The notes under the pieces are model-generated. The model had not been told where the DNA came from. It did no database searches and saw only the letters and a list, made by a program, of their open reading frames with translations. This document shows, piece after piece, positions 1 through 64,000 of a stretch of DNA of 64,000 nucleotides. Positions within the stretch are counted from its first letter, which is position 1; every line of letters starts with the position of its first letter. Source of the stretch: a virus; the IMG/VR virus record IMGVR_UViG_3300030228_000019; one strand, given 5' to 3'. A program made the translations under genes and the position numbers.

Positions 1-167
1 ATACTGCAATACAAATCAAGAAGTGTATTATTTTGTAATTTATAAATGTCTGTTGGCTTAACCATTACCTGTGCATCAATTAATGTTTTTATTAAATCAA
101 AAAATTCATTTTTTGTCATTTTATCAATAATTATTATAAAAAGAATGTTTAAAATAAAAAACAAATA

Positions 168-175
168 TTTAAATA
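168..175 (+). promoter_or_regulatory. Archaeal TATA box (TTTAAATA) upstream of ORF 207
   Basis: TTTAAATA about 30 nt before the ATG; the same motif lies 20-35 nt upstream of starts at 21145, 29521 and 30887. Confidence 0.55.
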
Positions 176-206
176 TATAAAATATTAATATTATAGTATT
201 GATAAT

Positions 207-839
207 ATGGCTGGAATTAAAACAGTTTTGCTCATTATTTTAATAGTGGCAGTAATTTTTGCATATTTGTATATATTTCATCCAAGTTATATTGGTAAAA
301 AATTAACAACTACTACTGTTTTACCATCAAATAATACAATAACTAATGCCTTTAATAATTATACAACAACAGCAGAAAAAGAATTTAATGTTTCTAATTC
401 AAGTGTTGTTTCAATTTTGCCAAACAAAGAACCCTATTTATTAAATGAGGTTCTTGAGTCTAATCCCAACCCAATACTTATTATCAATTATACTTATAAT
501 GGAAAAATATATCAGTTACCACAATGGTTTTCTCTATCATTTTCAAATGTAACAGCAAATCTTCCAAATTTTAATGGTCAACATGTTCAATTTTTATTTT
601 TTATGAACAAAACAGCAGCAATAAATTATACTGGAAATCCAGCTAATAGCACACCAATGATATTTAACTACAGTGTTGCTGTGAATGGAACTACTTATAA
701 ATTTACATTTATAAATAATAAAAATAATAAAATAATATCTGTCCTTTCAATTCCATTTAATAAACATCAAGTATTTTATACAATTGGTTTTGAATATAAT
801 AAAACTGTTTATTTAATTCCAGACATAGCAATTGGTTAA
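207..839 (+). CDS. Membrane-anchored secreted protein
   Basis: N-terminal TM helix; Asn/Thr-rich with many N-x-S/T sequons. Confidence 0.8.
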   Translation: MAGIKTVLLIILIVAVIFAYLYIFHPSYIGKKLTTTTVLPSNNTITNAFNNYTTTAEKEFNVSNSSVVSILPNKEPYLLNEVLESNPNPILIINYTYNGKIYQLPQWFSLSFSNVTANLPNFNGQHVQFLFFMNKTAAINYTGNPANSTPMIFNYSVAVNGTTYKFTFINNKNNKIISVLSIPFNKHQVFYTIGFEYNKTVYLIPDIAIG

Positions 840-844
840 TAAAA

Positions 845-3800
845 TTATGTTCTAACATTTTCATATAATGCATAGCCATTAATTGATGAGCCAGATATTG
901 ACCTTGTTGAACTTTCAAGAATATACTCAGATTTTGATATATATAAAAGGTTTGTAGTTCCATCATTATTTACCAGTTTGGTGTTTGCAAACCCTCTAAT
1001 ATAAGCATCAGTTTTACACACCTTATTATTACAAAATCCATATGATACACCACTTGGTTCAGAAGGAATTGTTGTATTGAAAGTTCCTGGTGCTATACTG
1101 ATTTGTGTGGTGGTATTATATATAATAATTCCAGCAACTTGTGAATCAGCTACTCTTTCAGGGGTTCCACCTATAATACCACAACTATGATAAAAATTCT
1201 TTGATGTTATAAGATAATTATATAAAGATTGATACTGGGTGACAAAATTGTTGCAAGTGCTTGGTGGTGAATCAGTAATATTTATATTATAACTTTCAAA
1301 TATAGGAACAGTATAACCATAAAATAAATTAAAGGTAGCTGGTTCCACTGGTAAAATTGAATAACTATTTGATAAATTAAAAAAAGTATCATAGCCTGGT
1401 CCTATATTTAAATTTTGCAGAGATTGTATTGTAACAAGTGGTGTATAACCAAATGTTTTAGTATATGCAGAGATTCCTGTGTTTCCACTAGGACCATTAA
1501 TGTCATAATTAGCAGTTCCATTTGAAAATAATGCTGTTGAAATAAGACCACTTTTAGTTACAGTTGAAACCTGTCCATTAATATTTCCAATAACTAAACA
1601 ATTATCAAGTATTCCAGAATCATAACATTTTGTATAATTTCCATTATTTGAAATTGTCTGTGAACTTGAAACAAAATGATTATTATTGGTGTTGTAAAAT
1701 CCTTCTGTTAGGGAGTATGTGGTTCCACTATACAAGTTAATATATTTAGAAGGGGCTGGTAATACAAAAAGATGTTGTGTGGCTATACTTGTGTTTTTTA
1801 TATAACTGCTATCAAAAGAAGTAAAGATGGGACCACCTGTAATATTATAAGGAACAGTTGTCCATCCAAGTGTTGAAAAACTATAAGGTTGACCAACTAA
1901 ATTTGTTGTTATATTTAGTGGAACAAGGTAAATTGCAATTATAGTATAATTATTTTTATCTGACAAACCAGATATTGTTTTACCAGTTACACCAGAAATT
2001 ATTTCATTTTTTATACCACTAACATATGTTTTTGTTGTATTATCATAAATGGTTAATAAATAATTTTTATTTTTTAAATAATTTGAATAATAAAATTTTA
2101 CTGGATTAATATCTATACTATATATTGTTGGTGAACCCTCTAAATAATAAGTTGTTATATTTGTATATGGTTCACTGGTATTAACTGTTGTATAACCAAA
2201 ATTAGTAGAAACAGCATGAGGAATTAATGAAATATCACCAATACTATCAGGATAGTTATACACAGTGATTGTTCCTGTTGATTTTATTATTTTATTAAAA
2301 AGCACTGATACATTTACAGATATAGTATCAATATATGTTTTATTTATTTTTGGATAACTTTGATTAAACAAGATTGCTGCTTCTTGTTCTGTTATATTAA
2401 TTGGTAAAGAAGTTGTTGATGTTGGTGGTGCTTTGTTTGATTTCAAAACTGTTCCATTTTTTAAATAATATGTAAATTGTATTGTGCTTTCTGGTAAATT
2501 TATTGAATAATTTTGTGAATTATATACAAATTTGTTTTTTGTATTTATATAAAAATATGTTGTATTATCACCAGGTATATCTTGGAATATAGCACCATTT
2601 GAATTTCCATACACTGGGTCAAAACTGTTACCCCAGTTTGAATGTGCAGACACCTGATAAAATGAAAAATTATCATTACCACTGTTTAATTCAGGATTTG
2701 AATACATTTCTATTTTTCCAGCATTATTTATATAAACAGTCAAATTATTTATATTTAAATTTGATGTTGTAAGATTATTAGCAACTGCTGTTGGATAAAT
2801 ATCTGATATTAACACATTTTTCCAAGCAGCATTTAAATACCCTGTTCCTGTCACATGACAGTTATTTCCACTGCACCCACCAGTTCCACCACCAGTGGGT
2901 GGAGGTGGTGGTATTACATGATAGTTTGCTATTATTGTAACATTTTGGCAACCATTAAGTGCTTTCCAATTGTAATTAAAACTTTCTGAATTAGAATTTG
3001 AAATTTTATCACCATTGCAATAAACATTTTGTGATACAAAACTTCCACTGCTTGAAGAGGTTGCTGCAAATGTCCATGTAAATCCAAATGTTGTATTTAA
3101 AGTATTAGCTGAAAATACATTTGTTTTATTAAATGTAAAAGTATAAGGTGTTGCTGTATTTGTTTGATTAGACCAGCCTATTAATGAATTTGTTGGTATT
3201 GCATTTGCTGAAAATGTTGTTGAAACACCACCTAAATTACTGGTTGCTTCCCATGAAATTGTTGGTAAACTAATCTTGAAATTAGCAGTATAGTTTGTTG
3301 CATTTACAACAGTAAATGTATAAGGATTTTGTGTTATTGTTGTTCCAGCATGGGTCCAATTACTAAAAGCATAATATGTATTTGCATTTCCAGTTATTAT
3401 TACTGATTTTCCTTTTGGAACAAATTCACTAATATTATTTCCTGTTATAGTTTTATTATTATATGGTGTATATATACTAACATTTCCTCTTGAACTATTT
3501 GAAGTTTTTACACTAATATTATATTCATATTCATAATCAGCTTGTAAGGTGCAGGGTGCAAATGATAATGATTTAACTGTTTGTGATGGATTAAACAAAT
3601 TAAATCCAGTTGAACATGATAATGAAACAGATGTGTTAAAATCAACAAATGCTAATGCTTTGGTCTTTGTTTTTGTTAAAATAGCAGGATAATTAAAAGA
3701 ATAAGGTGCTGCATCCTGATACATTGTATATGGTAAATTTCTTACAGATTGTTGAATACAAAATCTTGAGGCATCAACACCACAAGTAATATTTGTATCA

Positions 3801-62555: not shown

Positions 62556-62676
62556 AAAAGATAAAAACTTTTTATTAAATTGGTTTGCAGTATAGCAATT
62601 GATTATTATAAAGCTAAATTTAATAAATTAAAAAAGTATCTGTAATTTTAAATTAACACATTGTCTTATTTTATGA

Positions 62677-63060
62677 GTGACACCAGTGAACTCTTTCAAA
62701 AAACATCAGTTTATAAAAAGCATATTTGAAACAGTTACCATTGGTGCTGCTTTAATTAGTATATATTTGTTTTTAATAACAAATTTTGTAAACATAGGAT
62801 TACCAATTGTTATTATTACTATTATATTTTCTTTCATTATTTTTATGGCAATTATTTTTGTATTTTATAGCAACATAACAATTGAATGGTATAATTTTAA
62901 AGAGGAAATTGAATTTGAAATATCATCTTTAAAAACCACAAAATTATTTCTAAAAACAATGATAGAATTTTCTCAAAAGCCAAGACTTAAAAAAGAGTTA
63001 AAAAAAGAGATAAAAGAAATAAACAGCAATATCAGAAAATTGAATAAAAAACTTATTTAA
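62677..63060 (+). CDS. Two-TM membrane protein
   Basis: Two hydrophobic helices and a basic coiled tail. Confidence 0.65.
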   Translation: MTPVNSFKKHQFIKSIFETVTIGAALISIYLFLITNFVNIGLPIVIITIIFSFIIFMAIIFVFYSNITIEWYNFKEEIEFEISSLKTTKLFLKTMIEFSQKPRLKKELKKEIKEINSNIRKLNKKLI

Positions 63061-63326
63061 ACAGAGGAAGACTTTATTTGACTCCAATATGGGTTTTCAT
63101 CAGGTTTTACAGTTTTTATTCCATCAAAAAGCAGTTTTTCAATTTTTGAATAATCAATTTCAATATTTTTCTTTCTTAAAGATTCAACTTCAATAACAAG
63201 AGGTTCAACCAGCCAATCTTGATAAGTATTTTGGTGTAAGTTCATTTTTAGGTTTTTATTTATTTTTTTTGTAACATCTAAAAGTCTGTTTATTTCTTTA
63301 TCTGGTCCATTATTCATAAAAGTCAC
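63057..63326 (-). CDS. Hypothetical protein
   Basis: 89-aa ORF. Confidence 0.55.
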   Translation of the reverse strand: MTFMNNGPDKEINRLLDVTKKINKNLKMNLHQNTYQDWLVEPLVIEVESLRKKNIEIDYSKIEKLLFDGIKTVKPDENPYWSQIKSSSV

Positions 63327-63431
63327 ACAATACTATTGTATTATTAAATATTTATATGTTTCAGTTTTCACTAAAACACTTTAATACACAGTTGTATGGT
63401 ATTAGAGCAACAAACAGAAAAAAATAAACAA

Positions 63432-63998
63432 TTAGTCAAATATTTTTTCTAATATTACTTGTATTTCTTTTTCTCCTTCTGTTTCATTATATATATTTTT
63501 TATTTCATAATCAAATGGAAGGCTGTCTATTTCAGTTTCAGTTGGGTCATTAAGTTCAATTTCTGTTGGTTCTCTTCCATATATTTCCTTATATTTTTTT
63601 ATTCTATTTTTAATATCAGGACTTATTTTAACAACAAATAACTTTCTTTGTGTGTTTCCTGTATATAAAAGATATGAAAGTTCATTCATAAATCTAACAT
63701 CATCAACTATAAAAGGAAATTGTTTTTTTGTTGCAATACTGGTTGCAAGATATTTTATCCAAACATCAGGGTCAATTTCTCTCATTTTTGAACCAAGTTG
63801 CTGCAATAATCTTCTGTTTTTTTCCTTCATACCAAAAACATCTTTTGCAACATCTTTTAGTTTTGCTGCTATTGAAACTTTATAAGCTGTAATACCTTGC
63901 TTTTCTAATTCTTCTTTTAATTTATCAGCATAATATGTCTTTCCAGCAGCCATGTGTCCTATAAAAACTACTCCATCATATTTTATTTGTTTATCCAT
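63432..63998 (-). CDS. Phage-type deoxynucleoside monophosphate kinase
   Basis: GHMAAGKT, A.KLK, RRLLQQLG..MR..DPDVWI, IVDDVRFMNE. Confidence 0.82.
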   Translation of the reverse strand: MDKQIKYDGVVFIGHMAAGKTYYADKLKEELEKQGITAYKVSIAAKLKDVAKDVFGMKEKNRRLLQQLGSKMREIDPDVWIKYLATSIATKKQFPFIVDDVRFMNELSYLLYTGNTQRKLFVVKISPDIKNRIKKYKEIYGREPTEIELNDPTETEIDSLPFDYEIKNIYNETEGEKEIQVILEKIFD

Positions 63999-64000
63999 TT

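Follow-up and report, generated by a model that had tools for sequence, protein, structure and literature searches.

Word voids in an archaeal mobile element

The DNA analyzed here, IMG/VR record IMGVR_UViG_3300030228_000019 (64,000 bases, GC content 25.5%; hereafter the window, meaning this whole stretch), comes from acid-mine-drainage biofilms and forms part of a large archaeal mobile element that replicates itself and resembles a virus or megaplasmid; the window contains not a single copy of the 4-mers GATC, GTAC and GGCC. The same DNA was also found in mine-drainage metagenome runs of 2011–2015, where it lies on contigs of 107–118 kb, and a megablast search of phage and plasmid databases with 20 kb of it returned no match. 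The genes in the window encode VirB4/TraG-like, HerA/FtsK-like and VirB11/FlaI-like ATPases, an archaeal FEN1, an SNF2 helicase, Fic and large adhesin-like proteins, and the family to which the element belongs also encodes pilin-like proteins. In the flanks past the window end (loci L016, L209 and L211) a family-B DNA polymerase, a PriX primase, a TFIIB-like zinc-ribbon protein, AbiEii, Mre11/Rad50 and the A and B subunits of topoisomerase VI are encoded, which gives the element a near-complete replication set. The voids continue into these flanks: in 91.6 kb of stitched element, CG was observed 0 times against 1,511 expected, GATC 0 against 129, GTAC 0 against 91, GGCC 0 against 28 and GATATC 0 against 19. 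The void and two of the ATPase genes are located as follows:

1–64000, both strands: void of GATC, GTAC and GGCC, and also of CG, GATATC, GTATAC and CTGCAG, established by word counts and running on past both window ends
5688–8690, minus strand: VirB4-like ATPase gene, whose best NCBIfam match is the mycoplasma integrative and conjugative element (ICE) family VirB4_plasma (E = 1.8e-37)
14284–16209, plus strand: VirB11/FlaI-like ATPase gene

A preliminary description of the window had claimed that GATC, GTAC and apparently GGCC are eliminated from it, where about 140, 140 and 15 copies, respectively, would be expected. The mononucleotide expectations for the window are close to these estimates (144, 144 and 17), and each of the three words was counted 0 times in the 64,000 bases. 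Markov-corrected word counts, which had been proposed as a check, gave second-order expectations of 84.6 copies of GATC, 62.5 of GTAC and 20.7 of GGCC. The words were also compared with a codon-aware null, in which every encoded protein was kept, as were the codon usage observed and the ban on CG. Over 300 simulations of the coding sequence this null gave expectations of 75.9 ± 6.2 for GATC, 94.7 ± 7.9 for GTAC and 11.7 ± 3.0 for GGCC, and the lowest values reached were 59, 75 and 4, against 0 observed in every case. With the Markov and codon-aware expectations both far above zero, the claimed elimination was borne out. GGCC is indeed the weakest of the three, as had been stated, with ~12–21 copies expected in the window; at the level of the family it is solid, with 0 copies against ~76 expected over 209 kb.

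The three words are the only ones missing from the window among the 209 CG-free 4-mers, and all of them are palindromes (3 of the 11 that are CG-free). The next-rarest CG-free 4-mer, CTAG, stands at 0.54 of its Markov expectation and, given this gap between it and the zero-count words, the 4-mer pattern in the window is all-or-none. Other 4-bp palindromes do occur, in agreement with the preliminary description (AGCT 133, TGCA 267, CATG 101 and CTAG 28 copies in the window). The purge spans all three codon phases, both strands, and genes as well as spacers; in the 8.1 kb of intergenic DNA neither GATC nor GTAC was found, against 13.9 copies expected for each.

For control words and 6-mers a stricter codon null was used, in which the four banned words were additionally forbidden. 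Under this null CATG (88 against 84.8 expected) and TGCA (248 against 243) are neutral, no depletion is seen for GANTC, GTNAC, CCWGG, GGWCC or GTNNAC, and CTAG (22 against 72) and AGCT (108 against 175) are partially depleted. For the 6-bp palindromes GATATC, GTATAC, CTGCAG and CAGCTG the counts in this comparison are 0, 0, 0 and 1, respectively, where 7–11 copies would be expected. When seven lineages of the family were pooled (209 kb), the observed and expected numbers were 0 and 41.8 for GATATC, 1 and 27.1 for GTATAC, 0 and 21.0 for CTGCAG, and 1 and 14.5 for CAGCTG. Since words such as CATG and TGCA are neutral while the listed palindromes are gone, selection targets a defined set of palindromes, and not palindromes or GC-containing words generally. 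The sense strands of genes are depleted in the word GGAGG (5 against 18.7 expected) and the complement CCTCC is neutral, which looks like a translation-level effect, namely the avoidance of internal Shine–Dalgarno-like sequences; this strand-specific effect contrasts with the strand-symmetric voids of the palindromes. Two side observations concern single words: the 28 CTAG sites left in the window clump, with five in 28068–28988 and five in 36817–37541, and GAATTC is missing from some lineages of the family only.

Codon context and the protein level

The voids can be read in the choice of neighboring codons. The codon GAT is never followed by a codon starting with C (0 of 661), whereas GAC is so followed in 51 of 159 cases, and after GTA and GGC codons a C-starting codon is likewise never next. 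Conversely, the codons ATC, TAC and GCC never stand after a codon ending in G, TCN codons never after one ending in GA, ACN codons never after one ending in GT, and CCN codons never after one ending in GG. Ahead of Thr, Cys is written TGC 11 times and TGT 0 times, Ser is written AGC 20 times and AGT 0 times, and Gly is written GGT in 0 of 81 cases. The preliminary description had claimed that Asp turns from GAT to GAC ahead of a C-starting codon, and that Cys, Ser and Gly shun a GT ending ahead of ACN; neither rule has an exception in the window. The positions quoted as examples were also right, except that GACCAG lies at 19661 and not at 19663. These examples are:

648–653, plus strand: AGC ACA, with Ser as AGC ahead of Thr, in line with the window-wide count given above
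7812–7826, minus strand: GAT TTG TGG GAC CTT in the VirB4-like gene, with GAT or GAC picked by the next base
14578–14583, plus strand: GAC CTT, with Asp as GAC ahead of C, in frame in the VirB11/FlaI-like ATPase gene
15928–15933, plus strand: GAC CCT, in frame in the same VirB11/FlaI-like ATPase gene
18786–18806, minus strand: TGC ACT versus TGT TCT, a choice of Cys codon that avoids GTAC
19661–19666, plus strand: GAC CAG, in frame in the open reading frame (ORF) 19442–20116

The ban on GGCC reaches the protein level. The 18,684 predicted residues of the window include no Trp-Pro dipeptide, where 3.7 would be expected, because TGG-CCN, the sole spelling of Trp-Pro, forces GGCC. Taken together, GATC, GTAC and GGCC were removed from the element by synonymous codon choice, by changes in the spacers and, for GGCC, by the ban on Trp-Pro.

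Relatives, the CG ban and candidate hosts

Relatives of the VirB4-like protein, 47–66% identical to it, were found on contigs of 8.6–58 kb from NCBI metagenome-assembled genome (MAG), ENA and Logan assemblies. VirB4 scans of IMG/VR and of GTDB genomes yielded no relatives, and a VirB4 scan of metagenomes recovered only the known NCBI MAG contig. The contigs represent six further lineages from other acid-mine metagenomes, all of which are without CG, GATC, GTAC, GGCC and GATATC. In the VirB4 tree, clade A (the window, L001 and L007) carries the basic void set, and in clade B (L003, L005, L008 and L011) CTAG is gone as well (0 against 10–23 expected per locus). AGCT was counted 0 times in two lineages of clade B, L008–L010 and L011, against 9–29 expected per locus, and stands at ~0.55 of expectation in L003 and L005. 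GATATC, GTATAC, CTGCAG and CAGCTG, together with CTAG and AGCT in these sister lineages, have been written out in the same manner as the three 4-mers of the window.

The voids have been kept through considerable divergence. An alignment of L003 with L005 (20,487 bases) shows 3,380 differences, and neither locus gained a site, against a neutral expectation of ~86 new 4-mer sites. Among the possible point substitutions in the window, 2.55% create GATC, GTAC or GGCC, a proportion that rises to 10.9% when CG is added. Since ~2.5% of all possible point mutations would restore GATC, GTAC or GGCC, the voids can persist only under purifying selection that is strong and continuous. Strains from the mine itself differ by 1–11 bases per 10–21 kb, which is too few for a within-population test based on single-nucleotide polymorphisms. 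As a control, 64 chromosomal fragments (10–21 kb) of diverse archaea were examined; none showed a zero for the five words where at least 5 copies were expected, and the lowest CG ratio among them was 0.32.

The unusual part of the profile, far stranger than the palindrome voids, is the total ban on CG. The dinucleotide was counted 0 times in the window against 1,041 expected, and it is also absent from loci L001–L017 and L209–L212 and from every relative. In the window Arg is encoded by AGA and AGG only, and no codon ending in C stands ahead of one starting with G. Five CG-containing palindromic 4-cutters would leave 12 of the 16 NCGN contexts legal; such enzymes alone are therefore insufficient, and the CG ban needs an explanation of its own. 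Three small RNA genes of the window, namely a tRNA-like gene, tRNA-Leu(CAA) and tRNA-Lys(TTT), are all necessarily CG-free, and two of them lie at these positions:

32418–32493: tRNA-Lys(TTT)
36114–36184, plus strand: tRNA-like gene, reported by ARAGORN as 'tRNA-???', with an irregular anticodon loop and the anticodon 'gt', directly upstream of tRNA-Leu(CAA)

The preliminary description had proposed that the missing words be used to predict the host. No such prediction was obtained, and the published Thermoplasma methylomes do not fit the profile: those of T. acidophilum and T. volcanium (GATC, CGCG, GANTC, CATG, GTNAC and CCWGG) were rejected, as the last four of these words are not avoided by the element. 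The nearest cellular relatives of the FEN1 protein are at most 44% identical and are scattered over all archaeal phyla, with no close relative among them, and the contig of the best FEN1 match carries no host information. Identity of the NTP-transferase was at most 40% among 401 Thermoplasmata.

A similar word profile was found in one uncultured order of Thermoplasmatota (39 species). The chromosomes of its low-GC members (G002 and G461–G498; loci L115–L118 and L131–L188) are 3–10-fold down in GATC, GTAC, GGCC and CTAG and carry CG at 0.3–0.55 of expectation, and in one of them (G485) AGCT is depleted too (20/99). This chromosomal profile mirrors the barcodes of the element family, that is, its sets of void words, and shows cellular archaea to be under the same combined pressures. 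The four-word signature was found in none of 18 sampled genomes of the class Thermoplasmata. Micrarchaeota are depleted in GATC and GGCC, and some of them in CTAG or TCGA, though not in the full set. Of 301 genomes of the Micrarchaeota phylum, 26 carry distant VirB4 homologues, versus 0 of 197 in the Thermoplasmatota class that includes G002, and these homologues make Micrarchaeota a weak lead to a possible host. The same Thermoplasmatota order also holds an unrelated mobile element of 35.3 kb, in a hydrothermal MAG (G497:C1, comprising L167 and L169). This element has zero copies of GTAC, GGCC, CTAG, AGCT, GATATC and CGCG, normal GATC and some CG, and it encodes an N6/N4 DNA methylase (L167:17216–18496) adjoining an integrase. 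Such a pattern would be expected if a mobile element purged only what its own methylase leaves unprotected.

Probable restriction-site avoidance, rival readings and known systems

We consider it likely that the voids reflect the avoidance of multiple restriction targets by an unmethylated mobile replicon. The preliminary description had likewise suggested avoidance of 4-cutter restriction sites, and this suggestion is supported by a purge that is confined to short palindromes, is all-or-none, does not depend on frame, strand or coding, is kept in diverged relatives and is extended to CTAG and AGCT in sister lineages; no cognate methyltransferase was found in ~92 kb of the element. Among the window proteins, searches with Pfam, PADLOC and NCBIfam found no DNA methyltransferase or restriction-enzyme family, although divergent enzymes may escape them, and no methyltransferase or restriction enzyme appears in the precomputed Pfam matches of the flanking 28 kb. 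Under restriction-site avoidance, the element would leave its own DNA unmethylated and survive entry into new cells by offering no target to the sequence-specific nucleases common among its hosts. The agents could be restriction enzymes of the orthodox Type II kind, or nucleases that depend on methylation and act once the site carries the mark of a host methylase, and a single cut is assumed to be lethal to incoming DNA. The set of banned words in each lineage would be a record of the specificities it has met; the sets would therefore differ between lineages, and words would re-accumulate once the pressure relaxes. The persistent 4-bp methylation motifs of archaea are GATC, GTAC, AGCT, CGCG, GGCC and CTAG (PMC10609329), and the words purged in the element family coincide with them. 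In genomes of the acid-mine community, GATC and GGCC rank with the tetramers whose under-representation is most consistent (PMC2745766).

Several points weigh against restriction-site avoidance. The analysis covered ~92 kb of the 107-kb contig, and a methyltransferase could lie in the remaining ~15 kb. Neither the host nor, in any candidate host, a restriction enzyme or methylase with the right specificity was identified, and the one member of the mirroring Thermoplasmatota order that was traced (G487) originates from hydrothermal vents and marine sediments, not from mine drainage. The DUF1599 domain encoded in the window is a 'nucleotide modification associated' domain, and if the DNA of the element were hypermodified, loss of sites would be less needed. 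Finally, palindromic 4-cutters alone do not produce the ban on CG, which involves at least one selective agent of unknown kind.

Two further features of the window bear on the alternatives:

19442–20116, plus strand: 224-aa protein with a predicted PD-(D/E)XK nuclease-like fold, the only nuclease candidate of unassigned role in the window
35421–35960, 52867–53457, 54404–54994, 58526–58999 and 63432–63998: deoxynucleoside triphosphate (dNTP) module consisting of NDK, DUF1599, the NT5C deoxynucleotidase, a dCTP deaminase/dUTPase and a dNMP-kinase-like protein

The dNTP module may supply dTTP for an AT-rich genome, or may hint at base modification. ORF 19442–20116 has no match in Pfam, PADLOC or NCBIfam, and PADLOC returned no match for ten proteins of the window with no known function. 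The Atlas model of the ORF weakly resembles Hjc, NOV_C and PDDEXK_14 (template modeling (TM) score 0.45–0.5 by query); a single-sequence AlphaFold2 model had a predicted local distance difference test (pLDDT) score of 34 and was not used. Judging from the Atlas model, the protein likely has a generic PD-(D/E)XK nuclease-like fold of the Holliday-junction resolvase kind.

The loss of sites might serve to remove marks and not cuts, a possibility that we regard as unlikely. Orphan methyltransferases of the host would tag GATC, GTAC, GGCC and similar words, and methylation-dependent nucleases (Type IV, Mrr- or DpnI-like) would then cut the DNA of a promiscuous element in the next host, or the methylation would disturb replication or transcription. 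In favor of such marking, orphan enzymes make up most of the persistent archaeal methylases for these motifs (PMC10609329), DNA with Dam-methylated GATC is restricted by Haloferax Mrr, which has been discussed as a cause of the GATC loss in HF1 viruses (PMC7230728), and the G497:C1 element, with its own N6/N4 methylase, keeps GATC yet is without GTAC, GGCC, CTAG and AGCT. The sequence data, however, fit marking and classical restriction alike, none of the candidate hosts yielded a Type IV enzyme, and surveys hold orthodox Type II systems responsible for most avoidance (PMC6286503). As to the ban on CG, we find it improbable, and offer it as speculation, that the banned words, above all CG, reflect the action of a nuclease system of 2–4 bp specificity that has yet to be described. 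Such a system would be either a host defense attacking CG-containing foreign DNA, or a set of nucleases borne by the element without methylases, to which self would be known by the absence of the words and by which host DNA would be shredded for nucleotide salvage.

Discrimination of self from non-self by absence seems very unlikely. Nucleases of 2–6 bp specificity, encoded by the element without partner methylases, would shred the DNA of the host or of competitors, perhaps feeding the nucleotide-salvage genes, and the word-free genome of the element would be safe from them. An absolute purge would be expected where the nuclease is always present, no methyltransferase was found in ~92 kb, the dNTP module is rich (NT5C, NDK, the dNMP-kinase-like protein and the dCTP deaminase/dUTPase), and the PD-(D/E)XK-like protein predicted at 19442–20116 would be a candidate. 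Against this, at least 5–7 specificities would be required, no restriction-enzyme family was matched in Pfam, PADLOC or NCBIfam, the PD-(D/E)XK fold is generic and its match weak (TM at most 0.5 by query), and the differing void sets of the sister lineages were not tied to any gain of a gene. That there is no selection on the sites at all, with mutation bias, low GC or codon usage, or else some assembly or library artefact, producing the zeros, is scarcely credible. The GC content of only 25.5% does leave GGCC alone weakly informative within the window, but the codon-aware and Markov nulls are well above 0 for GATC and GTAC, the compositionally similar words CATG, TGCA and GANTC are at expectation, and the 64 control fragments of archaea show no zeros. 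An artefact of library or assembly was ruled out, the same zeros being present in independent assemblies of several studies and pipelines.

Read as restriction-site avoidance, the element adds an unusually clean multi-word case in an uncharacterized family of large archaeal mobile elements. The barcodes of void words are nested among its sister lineages: {GATC, GTAC, GGCC}, then with CTAG added, then with AGCT added. These nested barcodes form a natural record of the gain and relaxation of taboo sets, which the theory of taboo-free sequence space lacks (PMC7560954). The barcode is also a testable predictor of the methylomes and restriction–modification (R-M) repertoires of acid-mine archaea and could link uncultured elements to their hosts, and the palindrome voids are the background against which the total ban on CG must be explained.

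The avoidance of restriction by loss of sites is a long-known counter-defense, of which this element is an extreme and new case. Staphylococcus phage K has wholly lost GATC over more than 100 kb, and the broad-host-range IncP plasmids, which are promiscuous and conjugative, have lost 6-bp palindromes; both are bacterial, involve a single 4-mer and only 6-mers, respectively, and serve as leads only. Chlorella viruses encode R-M enzymes of 2–4 bp specificity, such as CviAI (GATC) and CviQI (GTAC), which they use against host DNA; they are of interest for the reading in which the element encodes its own nucleases, but their own DNA retains the sites and is shielded by methylation. The element, unlike chlorella viruses, has no such sites, and searches turned up none of these enzymes in it.

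The closest parallel among archaeal viruses is the HF1 group of haloviruses (HF1, HF2, HRTV-5/7/8, Serpecor1 and Hardycor2), whose genomes of ~70–78 kb have, like the element, 4-bp palindromes fully gone: CTAG and GATC are completely absent from the group, and HRTV-7 is also without AGCT (PMC7230728). As in the element, many 6-bp palindromes are missing from these viruses and there are lineage-specific additions, for which R-M and Mrr-type defenses of the host have been blamed (PMC7230728). Unlike the element, the HF1 group has haloarchaeal hosts, is GC-rich, shows no GTAC or GGCC voids, allows CG and encodes methylases, whereas the element belongs to a separate uncharacterized family with a VirB4/HerA/VirB11 module, and no methylase was found in it. 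In the survey of Rusinov et al. (2018), complete or near-complete elimination was seen in ~1/10 of prokaryotic virus genomes, mostly of orthodox Type II sites (PMC6286503). The viruses of that survey lost orthodox Type II palindromes by synonymous recoding, as the element did (PMC6286503), although their hosts and enzymes are known and the host here was not identified. Compared with them, the element family stands out by its unusually many 4-bp voids (three to five, plus four 6-mers) and by a total ban on a dinucleotide.

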